Shown: piece by piece, positions 4,770 to 64,000 of the stretch
Position numbering within the stretch: position 1 is the first letter of the stretch
How the letters are laid out: each line of letters starts with the position of its first letter
Assembly (NCBI GenBank): GCA_030324005.1
Contig: JARDVH010000001.1
Location: 106,857,389 to 106,921,388 of the forward strand
Length of the DNA: 64,000 bases
Direction: 5' to 3'
Source: Negaprion brevirostris
Lineage: Eukaryota
The notes under the pieces: model-generated
Told to the model about the DNA's origin: nothing
Databases searched by the model: none
Seen by the model: the letters and a program-made list of their open reading frames with translations, nothing else
Translations under genes and position numbers: made by a program

Positions 4770-5030
4770 GGCAACACAGCGGCACAGTGGCTAGCACAGT
4801 TGCCTCACAGTGCCGGGAACCTAGGTTCAATTCCGGCCCTGGGTGAATGTCTGTGTGGAACCTGCACGTTTTTCCTGTGGTCTGCGTGAGTTTACTCCGG
4901 GTGCTCCGGTTTTCTCCCACAGTCCAAAGATACGCAGGTTAGTTGGATTGGCCTTGCTAAATTTCCTCTGAGTGTCAGGGGGACCAATGGGCGAAATAGC
5001 CTCTTTCTGCAATGTAGGGATTCTAGTAAT
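4770..5030 (+). mobile_element. V-SINE (HE1-like), tail type A (CR1-like), nested in the Harbinger element
   Basis: tRNA-like head ggcacagtggctagcacagttgcctcacagtgccgggaacctaggttcaattcc, core gggtgctccggttttctcccacagtccaaaga, ending tgtagggattcta. Confidence 0.85.
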
Positions 5031-5806: not shown

Positions 5807-6710
5807 CAAAGGAAGGCATCATTGGCATTTACCAGGACTACAGCTACTACTGATGCCTTCCTGGCACCAGGTTCACAAGACAAGATGATCAAGGCCCATG
5901 GACCTCTGGGGCAGGTAAGCTGGGGGCTTGGGAAGGATAGGGAGAGGGCAAGGGTAGGAAGGAAAGAGATAGAACTAAGGAAGAGGGGGCATCCCACAAA
6001 GTGAAGGTCACAAAGAGTGACCTTCCTCCTTAGATATGACAAAGTAGTGTATTAACAGAGCAATTAGCTTGATTACAAGCTTAATTGACCCCTGATTATT
6101 CATTTCAATTTGGTGGGCAGACAGTCAATTTTGAGGTACGCATCTTTAAATAGGGAGAGATTGAGAGCCATGGGAAGGTGGTGGGATGAGTGCTGGGTGC
6201 CTGTCCCATTTTACATGCTCCCCCTCCCGCCATGGTAAACACATTCACTAGGGGCAGATAAAATTCAGCCCTTTGTATTGTTCTCCATTGGAACTGGAAA
6301 CAGAGCTAAAACAGGCATAAATGCAGCAGCAGAAATATTAACACAGCAGTGGTCAATGCAGAAGAGAGTGCAACACAAAAAGTGCAAAAGCTGGGAATTT
6401 AGCACAAGTAGAAATTCAGGGGGTGAAAGGTTCTGCTTTTAGGCTCCAATATTTATAGGTTTTGTTGTAAACAAATATGTAGTTTAATCTATGATTTTAG
6501 CTTGATCAAACAAAATACAAAAAAAGCCATAAGCTAATTTGCAGAATGCTTAGACAAATGAATTAAATAAATAGAGCAGTTACGTAAAAATGGCAGTGCT
6601 GCAACTGTAGCATGTGGGGAGTTGGTTGTGGAGAGCATTATAATACCAAAGAACCATGTCTACATCCTGAGCATCTTCAGCCAAGACTCATCGAGCTGCC
6701 TGGAGTCTGA

Positions 6711-8496
6711 TGATGTGGAGATGCCAGCGTTGGACTGGGGTAAACACGGTAAGAAGTCTCACAACACTAGGTTAAAGTCCAACAGGTTTGTTTGGTAGCA
6801 AAAGCCACTACATTTTGGAACACTGCCCCTTTGTCATGTAAGTCAGTCTCTTTCCCTTTAAAGATGCGTGCCTCAAAATCGACTGTCTGCCCACCAAATT
6901 GAAATGAATAATCAGAGTTCAATTAAGCTTGTTATCAAGCTAATTGCTCCTGTTAATATACTACTATATTGTATTTAAGGAGGAAGGTCACTGTTTGGAA
7001 CCTTTCCTTTGTGGCTTGCCCCTCTTCCTTCTTACTCTTACCCTGCCCCTCTCCTTCCCAAAACCCCAGGCTTACTTGCTCTGGAGGTCCATGGGCCTTG
7101 ACGAAGAGNNNNNNNNNNNNNNNNNNNNNNNNNNNNNNNNNNNNNNNNNNNNNNNNNNNNNNNNNNNNNNNNNNNNNNNNNNNNNNNNNNNNNNNNNNNN
7201 NNNNNNNNTTGTTCAGTTGGCTGGATGGCTGGTTAAAACAGTAAGAAGTCTCACAACACCAGGTTAAAGTCCAATGGTTTATTTGGTAGCAAAAGCTTTC
7301 GGAGCACTGCTCCTTCTTCAGGTGAGTGGGAGTTCTGTTCACAAACAGGGCATATAAAGACTCAAACTCAATTTACAAAATAATGATTGGAATGCGAGTC
7401 TTTACAGATAATCAACTCTTAAAGGTACAGACAGTGTGAGCGGAGAGAGGGTTAAACACAGGTTAAAGAGATGTGTATTGCCTCCAGCCAGGACAGTTAG
7501 TTAGATTTTGCAAGCCCAGGCAAGTAGTGGGGGTTACAGATAGTGTGACATGAACACAAGATACCAGTTGAGGCTGTCCTCATGTGCACGGAACTTGGCT
7601 ATTTGTCTCTGCTCAATGACTCTGCGTTGTCGTGTGTTGTGAAGGCCGCCTTGGAGAACGCTTATCCGAAGATCAGAGGCTGAATGCCCGTGACCACTGA
7701 AGTATTTCCCAACAGGAAAAGAACATTCTTGCTGCAAGCCTTCAGAAGAACAGTGACCGCGACACCATGCAACACTGCCGCGGCAACCTCAGCAAGACGC
7801 GCCAGATCATTGACTCGGATGCCATCATTTCACATGAGAACACCATCCACCAGGTACACTGTACATACACTTGCAACTCAGCCAACGTTGTCTCCCCAGT
7901 TCGCTGCAGGAAAGGATATCCCAAGGCATGGTACATCGGGGGGAACATGCAGACGCTACGACAATGGATGAATGAACACCGCTCAACAGTCACCAGGCAA
8001 GAATGTTCTCTTCCTGTTGGGAAATACTTCAGTGGTCACGGACATTCAGCCTCTGATCTTCGGGTAAACGTTCTCCAAGGCGGCCTTCACGACACATGAC
8101 AATGCAGAGTTGCTGAGCAGAGACTGATAGCCAATTTCCACACAAATGAGGACGGTCTCAACCGGGATCTTATGTTCATGTCACACCATCTGTAACCCCC
8201 AGGACTTGCCTGAGCTTGCAAAATCTCACTAACTGTACTGGTTGGAGATAATACACATCTCTTTAACCTGTGTTTAACCCTCTCTCCGCTTATATTGTCT
8301 GTACCTTTAAGATTTGATTTCCTGTAAAGACTCGCATTCCAATCATTATTTTGTAAATTGAGTTTGTGTCTTTATACGCCCTGTTTGTGAATAGAACTCC
8401 CACTTATCTGACGAAGGGGCAGCGCTCCAAAAGCTAGTGGCTTTTGCTACCAAATAAACCTGTTGGACTTTAACCTGGTGTTGTGAGACTTCTTAC
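6711..8496. mobile_element. Penelope-like element (family 1), composite inverted insertion with GIY-YIG endonuclease remnant
   Basis: Direct repeat ctggagtctgatg at 6700-6712 and 8496-8508 (TSD). Arms 7241-7737 and ~7995-8496 are inverted copies. 7767-8195 encodes YTCNSANVV...WYIG...TLRQWMNEHR...GLNRD (GIY-YIG), with one internal stop. Confidence 0.9.
7767..8195 (+). pseudogene. GIY-YIG endonuclease C-terminal fragment of the Penelope-like element
   Basis: ORF 7767-8099 continues past a TGA to TAA at 8193-8195. Motifs are NVV(Y)..C..YIG..R..EH and terminal GLNRD. Confidence 0.85.
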
Positions 8497-8901
8497 TGGA
8501 GTCTGATGTACAGACAGTAGGGGGCACCAGGGTGGGGGACAGTTACCTGGACACTGGTCCAGGAAGCAGTCCCACCCCTCTTAGGCAACAATTTAACTGA
8601 CAAGTTGGATGTCCCAAATCAATGACTCTTGTACTCTGAGCCTAATGCAGGCTTCTTAGGTACACTCCTGCTTCTTATTCCTTTTATTTTAGCAGAAATG
8701 TGTTGAGATACAGATTGCGATCTGTTTTTATCTTTTTTTAAAACCAGGTAAAGTTTGATCTCCTGTACTCACGGTGAAGAAATATACTTTCTCAATGTGC
8801 AAAACCACAAACAAAATTTTTGACACTAATGCTTCTTCACATCCCAGACAAAAAGAAAATGAGTATTTTTGATATTAATGCTTCTTCAGATGCAGCATTT
8901 T

Positions 8902-9756: not shown

Positions 9757-10244
9757 NNNNNNNNNNNNNNNNNNNNNNNNNNNNNNNNNNNNNNNNNNNN
9801 NNNNNNNNNNNNNNNNNNNNNNNNNNNNNNNNNNNNNNNNNNNNNNNNNNNNNNNNNNNNNNNNNNNNNNNNNNNNNNNNNNNNNNNNNNNNNNNNNNNN
9901 NNNNNNNNNNNNNNNNNNNNNNNNNNNNNNNNNNNNNNNNNNNNNNNNNNNNNNNNNNNNNNNNNNNNNNNNNNNNNNNNNNNNNNNNNNNNNNNNNNNN
10001 NNNNNNNNNNNNNNNNNNNNNNNNNNNNNNNNNNNNNNNNNNNNNNNNNNNNNNNNNNNNNNNNNNNNNNNNNNNNNCACAAAGGCTTTTCTGCTCGAAA
10101 GTTTTCAGTTCAGCCACGAACTATTTTTAAAAATGTCACCCACTCTCCCTCATCACCTAGGTGTTGCCCAATGTCTAGGGGCAGGTACACGCTTGAAATG
10201 TGGCGACTGATGCTGTCTTGTTCTCTGTTTCCAGTATTTCAGTT

Positions 10245-10520
10245 TTAGGTTATTTATTGGTATCACAAGTAGGCTTATATTAACACTACAATGAAATTAC
10301 TGTGAAAATCGCCTAGTTGCCACACTCCAGTGCCTCAGGTACACTGAGGGAGAATTTAGCATGGCCAGTGCACCTAACCAGTGCATGTTTTGAACTGTGG
10401 GAGGAAACTCACGCAGACACAAGGAGAATGTGCAGACTGTGTACAGATAGTGACCCAAGCCGGGAATTAAACCCGGGTCCCTGACAGAGAGGCAGCAGTG
10501 CTGACCACTGTGCCACTGTT
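10245..10520 (-). mobile_element. V-SINE (HE1-like), tail type B
   Basis: Reverse-complement head, core and tail, homologous to the 24235-24525 copy. Confidence 0.85.
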
Positions 10521-13015: not shown

Positions 13016-14199
13016 TATGAGGTTTAGAATTGAAACAGATGTATGAAACTATTAGTGGCATACCTGCAAAACTTTTGAAATCTTGCACGTCATTTTGCTG
13101 TTTGCCAGTCTTGCTATTTAATGGACATTAAAAGGCAGCAAAGTTTTCATCTCCACATTTTTTTAATGCTCCTTTGAGGATGTGACAGAAGATATTTCCA
13201 CCATCAGCCTATTTCCTATGCACAGAACAGATCTTTGTTGCATTGTTTTGCAGGGCAAACACTTTCTTTTCACACTGAACAGTAATGGAAACATGGTGGG
13301 GCTGCTTCAAGGCAGGATTGTAGAATTTTAAAACACAAAACACGATGATGTGTATGCTGGCTTGAAAATAACCTGGATTTCCCAAGGTACAGAGAGTTGT
13401 TAATGGCAACCATGTCACCATTCAGACCCCTAAGGCACAGTATAATGGTCTATATGGATAAAAAGAATTTCTACTTCATCTTGGTGAGCTGGTCACTGTG
13501 CATTAATATTTTACTTTGCAGGTCAGATGTCCCACTCCTAGGCAGCATTTCATGCCATGATGCTTTCATTTTAAGATCATTGTATCTGTAAAGCCTGGAA
13601 AGTATCTGGAAAGGAAAGTGATACTGAAGGAATGGACCCTTGGAGATCAAGGCTTCCGCTTTAGCCCTGGTTAATGAGATCATTCACCAACATCGACCGT
13701 GTGGGTGACACTGTTCATGGCAGTTACAAGGCCTGTGTATTCACCAGGATCACATCTGGAGTGAGACAGGATTTAGACATGAAGAGGGATGAGGAAAACT
13801 CTCTTTATTTGTATTAGAACATGGAAGATTAAGAGGAGATCAGATAAAGGAGTGAGTTTTTTTATAATTAAAATTAAACTATTTCTGTTGATCAACGAGT
13901 TGGCAACTAGGTACCATAATTTAAAGCTTCCAATTTTAAAAAACTCAGAGGGAGAGATTTAAACATTGAGGATTGAATTAACTGCATAGTTATTTTCAAG
14001 CCAGCATACACATTATCACCTTCTGTGTTTTTAAAATCTACAATCCTGTCTTGAAGTGGTGCTTCATACATCATGACAGTACAACTGCACCAGTGCCTCC
14101 AAGATTCTACTCCATAATTTTGCTGTGCAAAGATTAATCGTGGAGATGGAGGAAAGGTCATGATTTTACTATGCAGGTCATTCATTTTGGTAGATTGAA

Positions 14200-15045
14200 C
14201 CAGGGCAGGATTTACTCAAGTTAATGGTAGGGCGTTNNNNNNNNNNNNNNNNNNNNNNNNNNNNNNNNNNNNNNNNNNNNNNNNNNNNNNNNNNNNNNNN
14301 NNNNNNNNNNNNNNNNNNNNNNNNNNNNNNNNNNNNGCGTTGGGGAGAGTGACAGAACAAAGAGATCCAGGGATACTTGTTCATAGCTCCTTGAAAGTGG
14401 AGTCACAGGTGGACAGAATGGTGAAGAAGGTACTCAGCACTCTTGGTTTCATCGGTCAGAACATTGAACACAGGAGTTGGGACATCTTGTTGAAGTTGTA
14501 CAAAACAATGGTAAGGCCAATGTGTACAGTTCTGGTCACTCTTATTATAGAAAGGATATTATTAAACTAGAAAGAGTGCAGAAGAGATTTATTAGGATGC
14601 TAGCTGGACTTGATGGATTGAGTTATAAAGAGAGGCTGGATAGACTGGAACTTTTTTCTCTAGAGCGTAGAAGGCTGAGGGTGATCTTATAGAGGTCTAT
14701 AAAATAATGAGGAGCATAGATCAGCTAGATAGTCATATCTTTTCCCAAAGGTAGGGGAGTCTAAAACAAGAGGATATAAGGGGAGAGATACAAAAAGATC
14801 CAGAGGGGAAAATTTTTCACACAGAAGGTGGTGAGTGTCTGGAACAAGTTGCCAGGAGTATAGTAGAAGTGGGTACAATTTTATCTTTTAAAAAGCCTTT
14901 AGACAGTTATGTGGTTCAGATGGGTATAGAGGGATATGGGCCAAATGCAGGCAATTGGGATTAGCTTAGGTGCTTTAAAAAAAAAAGGGTAGCATGGACA
15001 AGTTGGGCCGATGGGTCTGTTACCATGCTGTAAAACTCTACATGG
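14200..15045 (+). mobile_element. CR1 LINE 3' fragment (RT C-terminus and 3'UTR)
   Basis: EQRDPGILVHSSLK..LYKTMVRP..YRKDIIKLERVQKRFIRML.GL..LSYKERLDRLELFSLERRRLR. Ends ...accatgctgtaaaactcta. Confidence 0.9.
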
Positions 15046-17555: not shown

Positions 17556-18664
17556 GTAACAGTTCATAGTACTGTATTAAATCAGGTTTCTTAACCAGGA
17601 GAAAAGTTACATGCTGCACATAAGGCTTGAACATATATTGCTCCCTTCCCAAATGAAAGCGTTTTTTGGTTTTATTGTGTATTCCATTTCCCTCCAATAT
17701 GGGACATTTTATATAATCTCACATGGGAAACATTAAACAACACATCTGTTTCATTGATCCCGTGTGATGACATATCAGACATGTAATCTGTATGTCCCCA
17801 CTTGCAAACCTCATTGAAATGATTGTAGAAAGTGGTAACACAGTCCACCTGGGATTGAGTGCTTTTCTAATAGGATTGTGTGTTTGCTGATTATTTGGTT
17901 CTCTCTTGTGAACTCTGTCTGTCATCTTAGGTGGTCCTGGGGAAATAAAGATGTGGAAAGATTTGCCCTGGAGCACCTTTCAGGGTATGGGGAGGTGGGG
18001 AAAGAACACTTCTAATTGTGATACGAGTTGTACAGGCAATGGAAATAAACTCTTCTGTGAACACATTTCTGTGCCAGACAGTCCTATATTAGATAAGTCG
18101 CAGTTGAATGGAATGAAAATGTATTGAACAAGTTAGATACGTGCAGTGTGCCATTTGTCATATTAGTGTAGCAAAGACTTCTAGATTATTTCCACCTCCT
18201 CAACAAGTTTGTCATTTTTCTGAATACATCTGTTTTATTCCTGCAAAAAAAAAGTGGAAATGTTTTAAGGCCAGAGCAGTTTGAGGGAACGATGTGTAGC
18301 AAAGAATTGTGAAGGGCATTATCAAATGTTACATCAATACATTTCATGTCATGTTTTACAATAGTCTGTATTATTACCTGCCGGGATATTCTTTATTTGA
18401 AACTGAGTCAAAAACCAAACAGTACAGCCTCCTGGAGATTGTCGATATAGCACAGTGTGAGACTATCGCTCTAATTAAGGATTGCTAGATTTCTTTCGCG
18501 TGACTGTACATTTACTTTTATTTTCAGTCAGGTTTTGTGTTGGGTCTTGTCATCACAAAGGAAACGAACTCCTTTCTGTAATTGTAATATGTTTCTGTGA
18601 TATCTGACCAGACTTTGCATGGAATAGTTTAAATCATTGAAAATCATTGCTTGTGTTTACAATT

Positions 18665-18830
18665 AAAGTTTATTTTGTTAGTGTCACAAGCAGACTTACA
18701 TTAACACTGTGATGAAGTTACTGTGAAAATCAGCTAGTTGCCACGCTGCAGACCCTGTTTGGATACACTGAGGGAGAATTTAGCACAGCCAATGCATCTA
18801 ACCAGCATGTCTTTAAGACTGTGGGAGAAA
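18665..18830 (-). mobile_element. V-SINE 3' half, tail type B
   Basis: aaagtttattttgttagtgtcacaagcagacttacattaacactg...gactgtgggag. Confidence 0.75.
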
Positions 18831-19569
18831 CCCTGTCACTGAGAATCATCTTCTGAAGAACAAAGCAAAGCACAACACAGGGCCAGGCCCTTCGGCCCTC
18901 CAACCCTGTGCCCATCATGGTGCCCTAAGTAAACTTAAATAAAAAATTTTGCATAGGTAATAAATTCTGGCCTTATTAGTGATACTCATAATCCCAAGAA
19001 TGAATGAAAAAATTAACTAGATTTTGGGATTATATATTAATCTATATTTTTCCATGGCAATTCGGCGACTTGTGTTACTTTATAGGGAACACAGATCAGT
19101 AGGGGTGGTGGGGGCCTGAATTGCGATCCGGATTGCAACAATCCATCCTGTAAAATTCTCATTGCTTTTCTCACTGGCGATGACACTTCATCACCTTTTG
19201 GGAGAATTCGACCTGTCAGCTTTCATTCAGTGCCGCTGCATTCAAATCCTGACACTCCCTTCTTAACATCACACGATTGGCAGTGGTTCAAGATTCAGCT
19301 CACCTGCACTATCTCAAGGGCACAAATGCTATCCTAGCCAGGGATGACCACATGCCAGGATGAAATGAAATAAAACTCTGGTTATGATGGATAGGAATGG
19401 GACCAGATGATGCAGTCCTACCTAGTTGCACAACATTGGAAAAGATGGGGTTGGGAGTGAGGGTGCATTCTTATCCAGAACATTCACACGGAATCTGAGC
19501 AGGCGAGGGCCAGACAATGGAAATTTCCAATGTCCTGGAGAGGCATATGCCAGGCTCGAGTCGAGCGAG

Positions 19570-21576: not shown

Positions 21577-21810
21577 AGCACAGTGGTTAGTACTGCTGCC
21601 TCACAGGGACCCGGATTCAATTCCGGTCTTGGCAAAACTGTCTTCGTGGATTTTGAATGTTCTCCCCGTGTCTGCATGGGTTTCCTCCAGCTGCTCTGGT
21701 TTCCTCTCCCAGCCCAAAGATGTGTAGGTTAGGTGGATTAACCACGGTAAATGCATGAGGTTACAGGGATAGGGCTGGGGGTAGGCCTGGGTAAGTTGTT
21801 CTTTCTGAGG
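21577..21810 (+). mobile_element. V-SINE (HE1-like)
   Basis: gcacagtggttagtactgctgcctcacagggacccggattcaattcc head and core. Confidence 0.8.
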
Positions 21811-27402: not shown

Positions 27403-27525
27403 GTCCGTGGGAGTAAGGGAGAATTGCTGTATGTTCTGGATGCCAGTAATCCGCGGCATTCAAACTGGTTGCGCTTCGTCCATCAAGCTCCGACACAAGA
27501 ACAGAAAAATCTGGCTGCGATTCAG
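27403..27525 (+). CDS. PRDM5: PRDM5 coding exon 3 (PR/SET domain)
   Basis: ag|GTC...CAG|gtgtg, 123 bp, phase 0/0. [41 protein letters not shown]. Confidence 0.96.
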
Positions 27526-44158: not shown

Positions 44159-45007
44159 AGTAAGAAGCCTGACAACGTCAGGTTTAAGTCCAACCGATTT
44201 ATTTGATAGTAAACTCGCAAGCTTTTGGGGTTTGCCCCTTCGTCAGGTGAATGGANNNNNNNNNNNNNNNNNNNNNNNNNNNNNNNNNNNNNNNNNNNNN
44301 NNNNNNNNNNNNNNNNNNNNNNNNNNNNNNNNNNNNNNNNNNNNNNNNNNNNNNNNNNNNNNNNNNNNNNNNNNNNNNNNNNNNNNNNNNNNNNNNNNNN
44401 NNNNNNNNNNNNNNNNNNNNNNNNNNNNNNNNNNNNNNNNNNNNNNNNNNNNNNNNNNNNNNNNNNNNNNNNNNNNNNNNNNNNNNNNNNNNNNNNNNNN
44501 NNNNNNNNNNNNNNNNNNNNNNNNNNNNNNNNNNNNNNNNNNNNNNNNNNNNNNNNNNNNNNNNNNNNNNNNNNNNNNNNNNNNNNNNNNNNNNNNNNNN
44601 NNNNNNNNNNNNNNNNNNNNNNNNNNNNNNNNNNNNNNNNNNNNNNNNNNNNNNNNNNNNNNNNNNNNNNNNNNNNNNNNNNNNNNNNNNNNNNNNNNNN
44701 NNNNNNNNNNNNNNNNNNNNNNNNNNNNNNNNNNNNNNNNNNNNNNNNNNNNNNNNNNNNNNNNNNNNNNNNNNNNNNNNNNNNNNNNNNNNNNNNNNNN
44801 NNNNNNNCCGATTTATTTGATAGTAAACTCGCAAGCTTTTGGGGTTTGCCCCTTCGTCAGGTGAATGGAGAGTTCTCCTTTCACCTGACAAAGGGGCAAA
44901 CCACGAAAGCTTGTGAGTTTATTAACAAATAAATTGGTTGGACTTAAACCTGGTGTTGTCAGACTTCTTATTGTGTTTACCCCAGTCCAACGCTAATCTC
45001 CACATCA
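44159..45007. mobile_element. Palindromic mini Penelope-like element (family 1 variant) with two inverted hammerhead motifs
   Basis: TSD ttggaacatcta at 44147-44158 and 45008-45019. Fold-back centred near 44872, with the tail on the right end only. 62 bp are duplicated across an internal gap. Confidence 0.85.
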
Positions 45008-45345
45008 TTGGAACATCTAGCCAGGACAAGCACAGTTCAGAACAATTGTCTTCCCATTATCAAGTAATGTATTGCCATCCTGTCATTCCCCTGACAAATG
45101 GAATTGCCTTTTAACAGCACCACCTAAAGTCGTAAGTGGTATTGCAGGTACGTTTTGATATTTTTACTTAAAGCTTGACAGAAATTTAACTATATTTTGA
45201 GATGTGATAGTGCAGTTAATACCTTTAATATGTTATGGAGTTGTGGAATTTATACATATTTTGTATTCCTCTTGTTCAAGTTTAAGGGAACAGTTAAAGT
45301 TGTGAGATCTTTGTTCATTTTTCTAAATCTGTTTACAATGTGCAA

Positions 45346-45628
45346 AGTAAGAAGTCTGAAAACACCGGGTTAAAGTCCAACAGGTTTATTTGGAACTAGC
45401 TTTCGGAGTCTCAGGCTCCTTCATCAGGTGAATGAGGACTTGTGTTCACAAACAGGCCATATACAGACACAAACTCAATTGGAATGTGAGTCTTAAAGGT
45501 AATCAAATCTTAAAGGTATAGACAATGTGAGTGGAGAGAGGGCCAAGCATGGGTTAAAGAGATGTGTATTGTCTCCAGCCAGGACAGTTAGTGAGATTTT
45601 GCAAGCCCAGAAGTTGGGCGGGGTTACA
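45346..45628 (-). mobile_element. Family-1 Penelope 3'UTR/pLTR fragment with intact hammerhead core (45393-45432)
   Basis: Homologous to 7241-7540. Minus strand reads cac-ctgatga-aggagcctgagactcc-gaaa-gcta. Confidence 0.85.
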
Positions 45629-46196: not shown

Positions 46197-46282
46197 TAAG
46201 AAGTCTCACAACACTAGATGAAAGTCCATCAGGTTTATTTTGAGTCACGAGCTTTCGGAGTGCTGCTCCTTCATCAGGTGAC
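46197..46282 (-). mobile_element. Minimal family-1 Penelope terminal insert
   Basis: taagaagtctcacaacactagatgaaagtccatcaggtttattt... homologous to 7241-7325. Confidence 0.8.
46244..46282 (-). ncRNA. Minimal type-I hammerhead ribozyme motif
   Basis: Minus strand GUCAC-CUGAUGA-A-GGAG-cagca-CUCC-GAAA-GCUC^GUGAC. It has a 5-bp stem I, complete core, 4-bp stem II, palindromic AGCU in place of stem III and a CUC cleavage triplet. Confidence 0.75.
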
Positions 46283-48449
46283 AATAAAGGTACTGTTGAT
46301 AGTTCTTTGCTACAGCAAAACTGGTCTACATAAGCTGATTCTGCTTGTCATCAGAAAATTTACCGAAGTGTTGCTTCCGTCGTCTAAAGCTGAAATCACT
46401 ACCATGCCATGGCTCGGTTAGTGCCAAAGCCTGGATGGCTTAATTAATTGTTGATGATGACCTCCATCAATGTTGAAAATTCAACTCATTGACCAAATCA
46501 TTACATCAATCTTCTAATGTAACTGCAGAAGAGAATGAATCAAGGGAATAGTGGACAGTAAGGATGATGTGATGAGTCACCTGAAGAAACTTAACATGAA
46601 AGGAGGAATTTACATGTGTGCCAATACCTGGCAAGAAGTGATAATCGATTACATAAAAACTTCCTGAAGAGAGACACTGGGTGCTATACTTGAAATATAA
46701 TCCAACAGTGCTGACGTGGAGGATATGAAGACTTTGCTAAAGAAGAAATACTTGTAAGTGAGAAACATGTCGGGACCACAATGGATTCTAGCCCACAAAC
46801 TAAAAAAATGCCAGAGTCATACTTGGAATCCATTTCAACACTGAATGCATCAATGTGTGGTTGAGTATCGATGTTCAAGTGCTATGAATGTGACAATTGC
46901 AGATAATCAAAACACTGGCCAACAGGTTTAAATTCTCAAGGTATTCAGCTACCTGAAGAAGATGACGCTGCCATCAATTGGAAAACAATGACAAATCAAC
47001 CATTGCAAATGTGACACAACTACAGAGCAACTAGCAGGGGCAGATGTGAGGAGTAATTATGACCAGATGACAATTACCGATATCTTCAACATGCATCCAT
47101 TTGTTCAACAATTGTTGATTGTACATCTGTATTTGTATTTCTGTTCCAGAAGAAGTAAAACTTAAATTTTAAATTAATTGTCTTGTTTGCTTTGTTATTC
47201 TGGCTACTGACTTGTCTCTTTTGAAACAACCTCATTTTAAAGTGGTCTCGCCAAAGATGTGGTCTCCATTATAGTGTAGTCCCATTATAGTATAATGTAA
47301 ATCACCACAGTTGTCTCAAGTGGAAAACATGTCCACATATGCTTTGGTAATATAGATCCTCTTGCAGTTGCAAGGTGCCCATTTTATAGTAAAGAAGCAT
47401 GCAGTTTTAAACTTTGGTCATTTATTGAGTGGTATTCCAGACTTCTGTGTATTTGCTGATTCCAAATGCAGCCATTCCCTAAAGCTGTGATCCTTGTATC
47501 ACACCAGTATACCTACTGCACTAAAGTGTTACTGCAGATGGCTGAGGTTGCCCTTTACCCCTCCTGTTGACACTGCTTGAGCACCACTTATCTCTTGATA
47601 GTACAGAAACGACTACAATCCATAAGATTGTCATTTGAGTACATTAATGAAAGTAAAAATAGTTTGTTAAACTTAGACAGTAGTTGCTTATAATGGCACT
47701 CTTGTTGAAAAATGTTAGTTTCAGGAACACAATTTTTGTTCCCCCTGTATCATGGTGCTACTCATTTCTTCACATTTCTGCTACTCATTAGTTTTCCAGT
47801 TTTCAAAACCTTTTGGAGACATTAAAAATAGCAATTTTATGGAGTTAGTTTACAAAAGGAACAGTGACCCAGCAGCCATGTTCTAAATGGTCTTTCATTG
47901 TTGTCTTTTTAACCTCTGGTGAGCAGAAAGGTATTGTGCTCCAAGTGAGGCAATTACAGAACACTCTAATTTCATACATATGTCTTAGTTGTCCTCACTA
48001 AATAAATACATTGATTTTGAAATTAAAATGGCAATGTAAGTTTCATTTTGGTGTTGGTTTGTGTTTGTGAAGGGTAGAATTGTTGATGGATGTAAGCTGC
48101 AGTATTAACAGAGCCCACCATTCCTTTCCATCCAATTTTGAAAAAAAAAACACGATTTTTTTTGTGGGGTGGAAGAGGGGTTGAACCAGATATAATACTA
48201 TCATTGTATTTAGTGTGTAAAAACAAAACCCACCAAGTGGTTTAGGTTCAGTCACAATACTTGCATGATTATCTTTTTGAGTGCAGCCTTGGATTGAACA
48301 TTTCAAATGGACTTTGGTTATTAGACCATCAGATGTCCTGTTGGTTTAAAAAAAGAGCTTGGCAAATAAATCTCTAAAGTGAAGTACATCAAAACAGTTT
48401 GATGCTGACATGATGCGTTTCAGACCATTGACGTAAACGTGTATTAGAA

Positions 48450-50156: not shown

Positions 50157-50325
50157 GAAGGAGAAAATATCTTCTATTTAGCTGTGGATGACATTGAAAC
50201 AGACAATGAGTTACTAATTGGTTACCTAGATAGTGAGATGGAGGAAATAGAGGAAGATGAGGAGGAGGAAGTAGCGGTCAAAGATGAAGAAAACGCCAAA
50301 GATATACAGCCATCCGGTGAAAAAG
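50157..50325 (+). CDS. PRDM5: PRDM5 coding exon 4 (end of PR/SET domain and acidic linker)
   Basis: ttttag|GAA...AAAG|gtact, 169 bp, phase 0/1. [38 protein letters not shown]...GEK. Confidence 0.93.
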
Positions 50326-51951: not shown

Positions 51952-53101
51952 GTAAGTACCACACTAAAATCCAGGCTTCCATAAAATTATCAAATAGAGC
52001 AAAGGTATCAATAAAGATGATAAATAACTGATGGTAAAATGTTTGATAAGTCTTGGGCACCATGTTTGGGGAACTGGGATCTCACCAAAATGGTGCATCA
52101 CAGGCACAACCTCCTATCTCATGTCGTAGAAGCCTATTCAGTTGTTGTGTCATATTGATGACTCCTCTAACAATACCAGAGTCTATTTGCTGATCCGTTG
52201 TGAGGACACCCAATATGTCCCCTTGATTCATGAGCAAGTGGCAAACAGGGAGAATGTACAATCAGGTGTTGCAGATCAGTGACGTATGTGAATTAACACA
52301 CTGCCAAAAAGGTCTCAAGTAGACTTCACTTACATGGAATATAAGCCCTCTTAGGTCCTCCATTGATCTGAGGCATCAGCAATCAGTCGTAGGCTGCCTG
52401 TTCATTCCTGATCGAGAATGGCAGTGATACACTGGTTGGTTGTACCTATCTCTGAGGTGGAAGAGTTCAGTCCGATTTCAAGTCGCTGAGGAAGTTGCCT
52501 ACGTGACACCATGTAACTTCTGTGTTAAGGTTTGCTCTGTTCATTGATGTCAAATACTGCAATTATATCCTTTCAGCAGCTCAAACAGTGGTTTGCCATC
52601 TCTGTGTAAATTTTGGGATGAAAATTGTTTGGTATTCTGCCAGCCCCAGGAATGAGTGGAGTGTCTCCTTCGTAATAGGAAGAAGCATCCACAAGGTAAT
52701 TTTTACCTTGTGGCTCTGTGGGGCTTTTCTTTCCAGTTGTATAGGTAGTCCTGGAAAAGTGACTCATTCTCTCAACAACTGAGCTTGTGCAGATTGACTT
52801 TAAGACCATTGGAGAGTGTGGTCAGTAGTTCTTCAAGAAAGAATAAATGTTTGTCCACTGGTGGTGGCCAAATGCAATTGGTACCGAAACATCCACGCAC
52901 TGAAACAAACGCTCCAGTGTCAAGTTCTCTGAGTGCCTGTGCTATGCATTTGTGAAATGCATAATGGCGAACCATTATGAATTCTTTGGGGTAACCTTGT
53001 CCAAGGTTAAATGGAAAACTCCAGAATCCATTTGAATGCAGAGTCGAAGAATTCTTAGATCCAGTTAGTATCTGTGACGAAAGCATTGGCGATTCCCTCA
53101 T

Positions 53102-53871
53102 TAAGAAATCTCACAACACCAGCTTAAAGTCCAACAGGTTTATTTGGTAACGCAAGCCACAAGCTTTTGGAGCGCTGCCCCTTCATCAGGTGAGTGGGAG
53201 TTCTGTTCACAAACAGGGCATATAAACACACAAACTCAATTTACAAAATAATGGTTGGAATGTGAATCTTTACAGGTAATCAAGTCTGAAAGGTACAGAC
53301 AATGTAAGTGGAGAGAGGGTTAAGCACAGGTTAAAGAGATGGGTATTGACTCCAGCCAGGACAGTTAGAGTTTGCAAACCCAGGCAAGTCGTGCAGGTTA
53401 CAGATGGTATGACATGAACCCAAGATCCTGGTTGAGGCTGTCCTCTTGTGTGGAACAACACAGAATCGCTGAGCAGAGACTGATAGCCAAGTCCCGCACG
53501 CAGGAGGACGGTCTCAACTGGGATCTTGGGTTCATGTCACACTATCCGTAAACCCCACGACTTGCCTGAGCTTGCAAAATTTCACTAACTGTCCTGGCTG
53601 GAGACAATACATATCTCTTTAACCTGTGCTTAGGTCTCTCTCCACTCACATTGTCTGTACCTTTAAGACTTGATTACCTGTCAAGACATGCATTCCAACC
53701 ATTATCTTGTAAACTGAGTTTGTTTCTATATATGCTCTGTTTGTGAACAGAACTCCCACTCACTGATGAAGGGGCAGTGCTCCGAAAGCTTGTGGCTTGT
53801 GCTACCAAATAAACCTGTTGGACTTTAACCTGGTGTTACCACAGTCCAACGCCAGCATCTCTACATCATGT
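53102..53871. mobile_element. Fold-back Penelope-like element (family 1)
   Basis: TSD ttccctcat at 53093-53101 and 53872-53880. Arms 53102-53455 and ~53490-53838 are inverted, with the tail on the right. Hammerhead core ctgatga..gaaa at 53763-53790. Confidence 0.9.
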
Positions 53872-54067: not shown

Positions 54068-54247
54068 TTTAAGTTTATTTATTACTGTCACAATCAGGCT
54101 TACATTAACACTGTAATGAAGTTACTGTGAAAATCCCCCAGTTGCCACACTCCGGTGCCTGTTTGGGTACACTGAGGGAGAATTTAGCATGGACAGTGCA
54201 CCTAATCAGCATGTCTTTCAGACTGTGGGAGGAAACCGGAGCACCCC
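54068..54247 (-). mobile_element. V-SINE 3' half, tail type B
   Basis: aagtttatttattactgtcacaatcaggcttacattaacactg...gactgtgggaggaaaccggagcaccc. Confidence 0.8.
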
Positions 54248-54463: not shown

Positions 54464-56209
54464 TCAATCAGTACATCAGTTCCCAAAATTCCCCTTCTAT
54501 GGGGAGGTCATATAAACAGACATGTGAGGTTTACAGATCAGGCCTCTCACCCAGATTTGAGTATGGGCTGAGTTTGCCACATTTCCACTGAAGCTTGAAT
54601 GGCAAATGACCCCTTCCCATTACAGCGCAGCATTCAGGGCGTGGGGTATGGACAACAGTAATGGCCGAACCATGCCTTTTAGCATAATCTGTCATTGGTC
54701 CTTTTCGTAGTTCTGATTGTTCAAAAGGAGCCTCATTGAGGTAGAATAGGCTTTGTTGAGTCAAGGTGGTGAGAAGGAGAAGCCCTCCAGGGCCAACGTT
54801 GATGGAATCGACAAAGAGCATTTCAAATAGCTGCACTTGATTGCGCTTCTCCCACCCCTTGGAATTCGTACTTATCAGGGCTATTCAGTTGGACTGGATT
54901 GAGCCAAGGGCCACAAAATGACAGCAGCCAACTCAGATGGGGCTGGGAGCTGTAGTGTGGCGCTGACACATTCGTGAGTGCGTGACAGAGGTATACGGCT
55001 CATTCTGTCGCAATTACATTGGGAAACTCCTCGGATGAGGTTTTCCGGCTGCACTCACCTCAAAACCGGAAAATCCTGCCCAAGATCGACAGACCTTTGC
55101 ACGGTCCGCCTCCCCACCCACTATGATTCCTGTGGCAAGTGGGACAGGAAAATTCTGCCCCCTTTGTCCTCTTGTTAAACATTCTGTTTCAAAATGAGTC
55201 AGAGGCCTGGACTCCTGTTGCAGCTATTGCTCCCCTGTTGCGGCCCTTATCTTCCCATTTCACAACTGTGGTCACACTTTTTAAGTGAAGCGCTGTGTGT
55301 GTTGTGCTGCAGTCAAATAAAAGTAAGTACAAGGTCACTTTTTTTTGACTTTTGCTTCTATCTCCAATTTAAATTGGTGGAGAAAGATGTAAATAAATAT
55401 TTTGGGACAGGCAGGTTAGATAAAGGGCTTTAGAAAATTCACCAAAACGTTAAAAACCGTAAATTTCGTAAGAAGTTCATTTGACCACAAGAATCCAAGT
55501 GCATGCATCATAACCTGTCGATTTTTCTCTTGATTGTTTTTCTCGGTTACAAATAAATTAGAAGTGAGTTACCAGTAGGTAAGTACTTGGAATTACTCTA
55601 ATTTATCAATTCTAAATATAAATGCTGACTACACAGAACAGGGGCAGATAATGTTATTGGCACAGTGTCAAATGTGAGAACATCTTGAGTCAACACCCAT
55701 TTGACTCAGAAGTTAACACGTCCTTTAAAGGCCAGATTAAACCAAGTTATTATCAGTGGGGTGAAGTTTATTATTACTTAATTATGACAACCATCCAAAA
55801 TATTTATTTAGTCCCTTATTTGTTGCTTTAAACAATTAAGACAAATCGTCGTTGGATTGAAATTCCATGGATTTGGGAGACCAATGGAATCCCTTCACAA
55901 CCTCAGCTCTTTAATCTCCAGTTACTCTTACCATAAAGCACACAGGGGAACAGTTTAAATTGTCGTGATCTTGTACATCACCTTATTTCTGCTCAAGTAG
56001 AGTGAGAGTATATCCAGTTGAGGTAAATTGTAATCAAAAATTAGCAGGCAAAAATATAAAGAGGTGATGGTTCGGGAACAGTTGAAGTATATTCCCAAGA
56101 AAGGGGAAATATAGGGGAACCAAAGTCAGATCTCTCTGAATGACAAAGCAAAACATAGAAAGGATGAGTATGTCAGATGTCAGGTTGATAACTCAAGTGA
56201 GAGCCAGAA

Positions 56210-56850
56210 AAAGTTTATTTATTAGTGTGTTACATTAACACTGCAGTGAAGTTACTATGAAAATCCCCTAGTCGCCACACTCCAGAGCCTGTTCTGATGC
56301 ACTTGAGGGAGAATTTAGCATGGCCAATGCACCTAACTAGCATGTCTTTTGGAGTGTGGGAAGAAACCAGAGCATCTAGAGGAAACGCAGACACGGGNNN
56401 NNNNNNNNNNNNNNNNNNNNNNNNNNNNNNNNNNNNNNNNNNNNNNNNNNNNNNNNNNNNNNNNNNNNNNNNNNNNNNNNNNNNNNNNNNNNNNNNNAGG
56501 GGGGATCTGATCGAGGTGTTCAAAATTATGAGGGTCATAAATAGGGTGGATTGGATAGGAATTTTTCCCCTTAGTAAAGGGTTTTAAGTTTTATTTCATA
56601 TTGTCACTTATAGAGTTACATTAACACGGCAATGAAAATCCCCTAGTCTCTGGCGCCTGTTCAGGTACACTGAGGGAGAACTTAGCATGGCCAACACACC
56701 TAACCAGCACGTCTTTCGGACTGTGGGAGGAAACCGGAGCACCCGGAGGAAACCCTCACAAACATGGGGAGAACTCCACACAGACAGTGACCCAAGCTGG
56801 GAATTGAACCTGGGTGCCTGGTGCTGTGAGGCAGTAGTGCTAACCACGTT
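56210..56850 (-). mobile_element. Two adjacent V-SINE copies (56210-56397 and 56588-56850), tail type B, with a short CR1 piece (plus strand) between them
   Basis: Both show the reverse-complement tail and core. RGDLIEVFKIMR at 56498-56535. Confidence 0.75.
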
Positions 56851-56879
56851 GCCAAGTTGAATGTAGAAAGTTCAGAAGG

Positions 56880-60794: not shown

Positions 60795-61087
60795 GCACTG
60801 CTGCCTCACGGCTCCAGGGAGCCGAGGTTCAATTCTAGCCCTGGGTGACTGTGTGGAATTTGCACATTCTCCCCGTGTCTATGTGGGTTTCCTCCGGGTG
60901 CTCCGATTTCCTCCCACAGCCCAAAGATGTGCGGGTTAGGTTGACTGGCCATGATAAATTGACCTTGGTGTCAGGGGGATTAACAGGATAAATCTGTAGA
61001 GTTGTGGGAATAGGGCCTGGGTGGGATTGTTGTCAGTGTTGGTTTGATGGGCCAAATTGCCGCCTCCTGCAGTGTAGAGATTCTGTG
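60795..61087 (+). mobile_element. V-SINE (HE1-like), tail type A
   Basis: gcactgctgcctcacggctccagggagccgaggttcaattc head, core, and ...gatgggccaaattgccgcctcctgcagtgtagagattct ending. Confidence 0.85.
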
Positions 61088-63080: not shown

Positions 63081-63612
63081 GTAAGATCACTGACTAAAGG
63101 AGAGAATGATCTAAACTCTCTGACTTGTGGTAATGTTGATAGGTTAGAGGATATACAAAAATATACAGCTTGATTTTGAGATTTTTGCTTGTGCTTATAA
63201 AGGAGTATATTACAATCACTTGATTGTAGTTTACGTTCAAGGATTCAACCTGACAATGTAGTTTTTTATTTGTGACTTCAACCCCATGCATTGTGGGATA
63301 TGGAGAAGTATGTCCTCCATCCTGGTATGCTTTTGTTGCACACTCCTGGATTTGGTCTGTTTATTTTTAGGGTAAGTTTCAGAGTAGTGTCAGTGTTAAG
63401 ACAAATGCATGTGTATACAAGGCAACCTCCTGCTGATTACCACTGACCACCCTCCCTCAGCTGATGGATGGGTGCTCCTCCATATCAAAGAAGCATTGAG
63501 GGTAAAAAGGGCNNNNNNNNNNNNNNNNNNNNNNNNNNNNNNNNNNNNNNNNNNNNNNNNNNNNNNNNNNNNNNNNNNNNNNNNNNNNNNNNNNNNNNNN
63601 NNNNNNNNNNNN

Positions 63613-64000
63613 ATCCTGTTAAGTCCCATGTACTCATCCAGAAGTCTCCTAAAAGACCCTATCGAATTTGCCGCCACCACCACCGGCAGCCGATTCCACT
63701 CACCCACCACCCTCTGAGTGAAGAACTTACCCCTGACACCTCCTCTGCACCTACGCCCCAGCACCTTAAAACTGTGTCCTCTTGTGGCAGCTATTTCAGC
63801 CCTGGGAAAAAACCTCTGAGAATCCACCTGATCAATACCTCTCATCATCTTATACACTTCTATCAGGTCCTCTCTCATCCTTCATCTCTCCAAGGAGAAA
63901 ACACTGAACTCTCTCAACCTATTTTCATGAGGCATGCCACCCAATCCAGGCAACATCCTTCTAAATCTCGTCTGCACCCTTTCAATGGCTCCCATATCCT
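63613..64000 (-). mobile_element. Relatively young CR1 LINE 3' fragment
   Basis: REDLIEVYKMMRGIDQVDSQRFFP...TRGHSFKVLG...GKFFTQRVVGEWNRLP, in an open frame. Confidence 0.9.

Follow-up and report, generated by a model that had tools for sequence, protein, structure and literature searches.

A minimal hammerhead motif, probably inert, in an old fragment of a putative Neptune-type Penelope-like element antisense to PRDM5

The motif and its setting in PRDM5 intron 3

The window (the whole stretch of 64,000 nt of Negaprion brevirostris DNA that was analyzed) carries exons 3 and 4 of PRDM5 on the plus strand, and the intron between them holds a hammerhead motif on the minus strand. The motif had thus been correctly placed as antisense in PRDM5 intron 3, and it is absent from the PRDM5 pre-mRNA. 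The gene, the carrier of the motif, and the parts of the motif are as follows.

27403..27525, plus strand: PRDM5 exon 3 (end at about 27525), matching PR domain zinc finger protein 5 of PDB entry 6xaz (E 6e-21)
50157..50325, plus strand: PRDM5 exon 4 (end approximate)
46197..46281, minus strand: 5'-truncated mini-copy of the pLTR end of a putative Neptune-type Penelope-like element (PLE), with loose ends at 46197 and 46281
46244..46282, minus strand: minimal type-I hammerhead (stem I, core, extra A, stem II, GAA, AGCU, C17)
46278..46282, minus strand: stem I, 5' strand GUCAC, its first G at the flank junction and outside the family sequence
46270..46277, minus strand: core C3-A9 (CUGAUGA) and the unpaired A between positions 9 and 10.1
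46257..46269, minus strand: stem II of 4 bp with a loop of 5 nt (GGAG, CAGCA, CUCC)
46249..46256, minus strand: G12 A13 A14 (GAA), palindromic AGCU, and C17; stem III would form only in a dimer (model of PMC4209133)
46244..46248, minus strand: stem I, 3' strand GUGAC

The original prediction had claimed a hammerhead from 46282 to 46244, and the letters read as it described. C3-A9, G12-A14, A15.1-U16.1, and H17 (here C17) are all present, stem I closes the 5' and 3' ends, and G10.1-C11.1 opens stem II after one unpaired base. The fifth stem II pair of the family is gone from this copy by CpG decay at 46261. A fifth stem I pair is not encoded by the family, G46282 lying at the junction with flanking DNA. 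By the hammerhead numbering that we assume, the predicted cut falls between 46249 and 46248. The palindromic remnant of stem III, AGCU, is present without a loop and is the majority sequence in all subfamilies. An unpaired A between positions 9 and 10.1 is typical of PLE minimal hammerheads (PMC4209133).

The bare core pattern matches six times in the window against 1.76 matches expected, and 0 of 100 shuffles reach six. The 39-mer folds into stems I and II at −10.8 kcal/mol, with a z of only −1.47. A scan with Rfam gave no match to the hammerhead families at E<=10, which is as expected of a motif lacking stem III. The motif is upheld as a minimal type-I hammerhead of PLE origin in which AGCU is the palindromic remnant of stem III, and it is of a known kind (Cervera and De la Pena 2014).

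The ~85-nt repeat that the motif opens occurs about 13 times in the window, including the following features.

45393..45432, minus strand: nearest same-strand hammerhead, 850 nt downstream, with an intact core and a stem I of just 2 bp
44161..45008: head-to-head pair of ends of the GGGG-caaa-CCCC subfamily, one arm with G12A and the other with G8A, split by a gap
7239..8498: longer relic of the same family, with inverted pLTR arms at 7294-7732 and 7997-8435
7701..8099, plus strand: GIY-YIG endonuclease remnant between the arms of this relic
53099..53868: two inverted pLTRs, each with a hammerhead at its outer end; only the right arm has a tail

By eye, the copy at 46244-46282 is the only complete one in the window; the others carry G12A or G8A or have a broken stem I. 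The copies quoted in the original prediction had been said to keep the core apart from CpG-type decay. Those at 7292-7325, 45393-45432, and 53763-53790 (the last on the plus strand) do keep it, but with stem I broken or shifted in all of them. In that at 44215-44250, G12 is replaced by A. As G12 is the general base (PMC6155905), this core is dead. The same copy is duplicated at 44809-44868 across a gap: an identical 60 nt at 44195-44254 and 44809-44868 flanks 552 Ns, so that one arm of a short fold-back has probably been duplicated by the gap.

Read backwards, the element start is CAG/GTGAGT, found at 46272-46285 (+), 45422-45435, 53184-53197, and 7316-7329. This sequence is splice-donor-like. 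In the copy at 46244-46282 the site reads CAG/GTGACA, and a perfect version is found at 53189. Antisense copies thus bring donor-like sites into the PRDM5 pre-mRNA.

Other abundant dispersed repeats in the window are SINE-like (4775-4962, 10243-10483, 18664-18842, 21639-21752, 54068-54246, 56198-56854, and 60825-60959). At 5900-6990, inverted arms (6058-6181 and 6826-6949) surround a PLE mini-copy (6721-6842); this may be a non-autonomous DNA transposon into which the PLE inserted. The frames at 14199-14570 (+) and 63396-63881 (−) presumably resemble the C-terminal ends of CR1/L2-type LINE proteins.

The carrier element, its subfamilies, and its decay

The mini-copy at 46197-46281 starts 4 nt before the core and stops, tail-less, at the first of two 3' end sites of the family; the search for a target-site duplication at this copy gave nothing above 6 nt with one mismatch. 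In other genomic copies, a PLE-type reverse transcriptase (RT; RVT_1, E 1e-8) is followed by a C-terminal GIY-YIG-type frame with a CX4CxxC linker and then by the hammerhead in the pLTR. This context comes from those copies and from the relic at 7239-8498, not from the fragment itself. The GIY-YIG remnants were not recognized by Pfam, and the domain was read by its motif. In 17 of 32 loci among the matches listed (some loci overlap), the hammerhead lies at +506 to +623 from the start of the GIY query. Going by its CX2-5CxxC linker, the element is an endonuclease-bearing (EN+) PLE of apparent Neptune type; this linker also occurs in Nematis (PMC8557442).

Family copies show 5' truncation, inverted arms, and an optional tail of 30-40 bp, and their 3' ends fall into two clusters (19/68 and 36/68 copies), which fits a PLE tail. 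The fragment stands solo in unique flanks, outside any tandem repeat of the kind that defines non-LTR retrozymes. No full-length element was recovered, the long “open frames” being gaps, and a common ORF continuation past the tail was not found in 94 copies. The letters that follow the tail motif are A (76/94), T (66/94), and G (44/94), after which conservation stops; an ORF start codon possibly marks the second RT start site. The family is abundant: 140 stretches at arbitrary coordinates on large scaffolds, together 1.2 Mb of N-free DNA, hold 70 element ends (58 per Mb), hence roughly 10^5 per genome. The exact core pattern, with AGCU fixed, has 9,977 matches genome-wide, and its reversed control has 0.

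The original prediction had also stressed that stem II varies between copies but stays paired. All four stems that it quoted are present, and the family does covary; two of the four, however, represent CpG decay. The forms GGAGC agt GCUCC and GGAG cagca CUCC are two CpG-decay products of one ancestral family stem, GGAGC AGC GCUCC, and are thus not covariation. GGGG/CCCC, in contrast, is a true compensated subfamily, and GGGGC/GCUCC is a recurring wobble. Covariation was measured on 31 sequences (30 among the pattern matches listed and the copy at 46244-46282). Four of the five stem II pairs change on both sides, and the whole structure has 20 cells changed on both sides, a value that 0 of 500 shuffles reach. 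The recurring classes among the matches listed are GGAGC/GCUCC, GGGGC/GCCCC, GGAAC/GUUCC, GAGG/CCUC, GGGG/CCCC, and GGAGUC/GACUCC. Because these classes are subfamilies, the independent events are few and relatedness inflates the counts; between subfamilies, the stem II covariation signal is real. The search pattern fixed every stem I column but the fourth pair, which is U-A in 14, U-G in 9, C-G in 2, and unpaired in 6 of the 31 sequences. The letter at position 17 depends on the subfamily (C 44/72, A 34/43, U 40/43), so cleavage rates should differ.

The completeness of the copy at 46244-46282 is not special. Of 61 copies collected without regard to the motif, 22 keep all 11 core letters. Of 35 unselected copies that were parsed, with errors in a few rows, 4 have the complete motif, so that one complete motif per window is expected. 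With 9 of 87 letters off the subfamily majority, the copy is mid-range among its relatives (4.5-17% in 13 other copies). In a related organism, both flanks run into the element with 27 changes in 468 letters and 21 in 494, where the relative is represented by three runs of one sample whose contigs break inside the motif and do not bridge its middle. As the insertion is shared with a relative that is 4-6% diverged, it is old.

Non-CpG core letters change less often than those downstream (7/348 vs. 116/1467). The difference persists for private changes only (5/348 vs. 57/1467, p 0.02), and the copy at 46244-46282 has zero core changes. Purely neutral decay from one master thus does not fit. We read the low rate of core change as selection among many source elements, to which some selection on inserted copies may have contributed.

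A 5' boundary just before the motif

The following boundary counts were made by eye, in genome order, among the matches listed. The same stem II arm and core are found in 6,962 matches; among 100 of these that were listed, 33 continue upstream into the pLTR. The other 67 stop; some 60 of these end 3-8 nt before C3, and only a few end in the following 7 nt. The copy at 46197-46281 stops 4 nt before C3. Among the matches listed, the commonest stops are an A six bases before C3 and one base beyond that A. This A stands in an initiator-like context. When copies matching through that A and then differing were collected (943 matches), 26 continue and 74 stop among 100 matches listed. Literature searches, at the level of their listings, gave no published report of this 5' boundary. 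Perfect fold-backs with arms that meet at the boundary also occur (e.g., C1:36745687-36745725), and in some of them both arms start at the same A with one base between.

The boundary suggests copying of capped, uncut RNA. As a tentative proposal, to which we give somewhat less than even odds, transcription would start ~6 nt before the core, so that the capped mRNA of the element opens with the hammerhead as its first 40 bases, and the mini-copies of 85-135 bp would be cDNAs that were primed at internal tail sites and ran off the 5' end of capped, uncut RNA. A competing explanation, a real possibility though less likely than not, is that the boundary arises from stalling of a 5'-3' exonuclease at the folded ribozyme or from cDNA snap-back, and not from a transcription start. 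Stalling or snap-back would account for a boundary that hugs the structure and for the many fold-backs, which make up 37 of the 74 junctions among the matches listed. It is also favored by the GGGG-caaa-CCCC subfamily (1,128 matches), in which the boundary is weak despite similar upstream sequence (about 14 of 100 stop there among the matches listed).

The letter at the junction points the other way. Among the matches listed, the next sense letter is G at 53 of the 74 junctions (26% expected). This extra G is also found when fold-backs are excluded (23/37 vs. 26% expected, p 3e-6), and it is absent at internal junctions (16/54 vs. ~16.5 expected), both of which speak against stalling or snap-back. 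Frequent 5' guanines have been taken as a sign of the cap for LINE-1 (PMC2831318). Starts at the cut site, for which 27 of 100 listed rows were set aside as internal deletions or insertions, number 11 of 73 junctions among the matches listed, against 6-15 at neighboring positions and ~6.8 expected (p 0.08). The boundary, the extra G, and the lack of a clear cut-site peak together fit cDNA synthesis that is primed internally, at the tail sites, and runs off where a capped, uncut RNA begins.

A stricter extension script, which scored mutated cores as truncations, gave a weaker boundary (6/37 within 13 nt of C3 vs. 15/31 otherwise). Two other candidates were discarded. Three fold-back arms had seemed to start at the cut, a footprint that was dropped when the genome-wide matches listed gave no clear peak. 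Antisense splicing at CAG/GTGAGT as the cause of the boundary was ruled out, as the junctions keep GTG.

If the capped-start proposal is true, a cut would remove the cap together with a leader of ~35 nt, and the genome would record both that PLE reverse transcriptase copies uncut RNA in vivo and the place where a vertebrate Neptune promoter fires.

Cleavage prospects and comparison with known systems

We consider it likely, with a probability of about 0.88, that the minimal hammerhead at this locus is carried by an 85-base remnant, old by now, of an abundant PLE of Neptune type, and that this antisense copy is probably inert. When the element was active, stems I and II of the motif would have folded within one copy, and stem III would have formed only by pairing of AGCU with a second copy. 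The element's protein probably helps dimer assembly, and the cut would follow C17, both by analogy with published elements (PMC4209133, PMC11167929). The stem II covariation between subfamilies suggests that selection held the fold while the element spread; after insertion, each copy decays, mainly at CpG. For the fragment at 46197-46281, reverse transcription would have begun at an internal position, the first of two fixed sites that lie ~60 nt beyond the cut, and have proceeded up to where an uncut RNA begins, just a few bases ahead of stem I.

That the motif was never catalytic in the family, and that its fold persists because it serves the pLTR in protein binding or as a promoter element, we regard as improbable. 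G17 disfavors hammerhead cleavage and is found in 5 of 72 copies, and the starts at the cut site are without clear excess, both of which such a role would explain. It would also agree with the anole element, in which core mutants leave in vitro insertion unaffected and RNA-seq reads neither begin nor end at the cut site (PMC11167929). However, it is exactly the catalytic letters that are common to the subfamilies, with variation in stems, loops, and position 7, and the anole PLE hammerhead does cleave, only when PLE protein is present (PMC11167929).

AGCU cannot close stem III inside one copy, so a second copy is needed. Nearest-neighbor models, which ignore core tertiary contacts, place the active homodimer at −19.9 kcal/mol, less stable than two monomers (−21.6) or an inactive dimer (−25.5). 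With the same-strand neighbor 850 nt away, the cross-cutting form (−14.5) is predicted to be no better than monomers (−15.2) or an inactive fold (−17.2). The modeled energies thus do not favor the active dimer. A synthetic tandem construct may cut weakly as a dimer; among tested PLE hammerheads, monomer cleavage was absent and dimer cleavage low (PMC4209133). Cleavage at this locus in the cell is unlikely, given that the copy is antisense to the host gene, that its sole near same-strand partner has a 2-bp stem I, and that the dimer energies are unfavorable. We therefore see very little chance that an antisense intron 3 transcript is cut at 46244-46282 with 45393-45432 as the second dimer half, even though the copy is the sole complete one in the window, the neighbor's core could pair with 4+4 bp on its cut site, the insertion is common to a relative, and the stems form with a predicted probability of ~0.8 in short context, since this probability is only 0.15-0.34 once 100-200 nt of flank are included, the cross-cutting pair gains nothing, and one complete motif per window is expected in any case. 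Elsewhere in the genome, same-strand copies lie 150 bp to 7 kb apart (C1:26224804/26224956, the C1:24730129/24730914 region, and C25:18604793/18611930) and may represent natural tandem dimers.

Taken alone, the copy in PRDM5 is of little importance, being one relic among ~10,000 core-intact ones and oriented against the host transcript. Of more use is the family, as the role of PLE hammerheads has been called unclear (PMC8557442). Its thousands of copy ends predict a cap-bearing start just before stem I and few starts at the cut, and several natural stem II variants suit assays of dimer or protein-assisted cleavage.

The domesticated hammerheads of amniotes (RECK etc.; PMC6155905) likewise lie within introns. 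The copy described here differs in being repeat-derived, minimal, and one of ~10^4, and, as it is antisense to PRDM5, it is not on the transcribed strand. Non-LTR retrozymes share PLE-derived type I hammerheads, and one chondrichthyan genome has been reported to carry them; they form tandem arrays, whereas ours is a solo dispersed fragment (bioRxiv 10.64898/2026.07.22.740005).

Neptune and Nematis EN+ PLEs have the same RT, CX2-5CxxC linker, C-terminal GIY-YIG, inverted arms, and one-sided tail, and an initiator-like motif was noted in the pLTR of Adineta (PMC8557442, PMC3846280). The element described here was placed in this clade by its linker rather than by a tree, and from copies none of which is intact over the full length. 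PAc of Anolis carolinensis is of Poseidon type, while our element is apparently of Neptune type. PAc also carries its hammerhead in the pLTR, its two internal RT start sites give an optional tail like the two 3' end clusters of our family, and uncut RNA is its main template, as would hold for the family under the capped-start proposal (Frangieh et al. 2024, PMC11167929). In PAc the ORF begins inside the hammerhead (PMC11167929), whereas no shared frame starts there in our copies and ATG is favored only at the tail end.

The closest match is provided by the minimal hammerheads of metazoan PLEs, reported also from Neptune elements of fishes (PMC4209133). Their account, supplements aside, names no shark and says nothing on the 5' ends of mini-copies, and stem II has 7-8 bp in Schistosoma compared to 4-6 bp here. 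In all other respects compared, they agree with the motif and its family: type I, a stem I of 4-5 bp, an unpaired base between 9 and 10.1, G10.1-C11.1, palindromic 15.2-16.2 without loop 3, and thousands of mostly solo, truncated copies in families with compensatory changes (PMC4209133).
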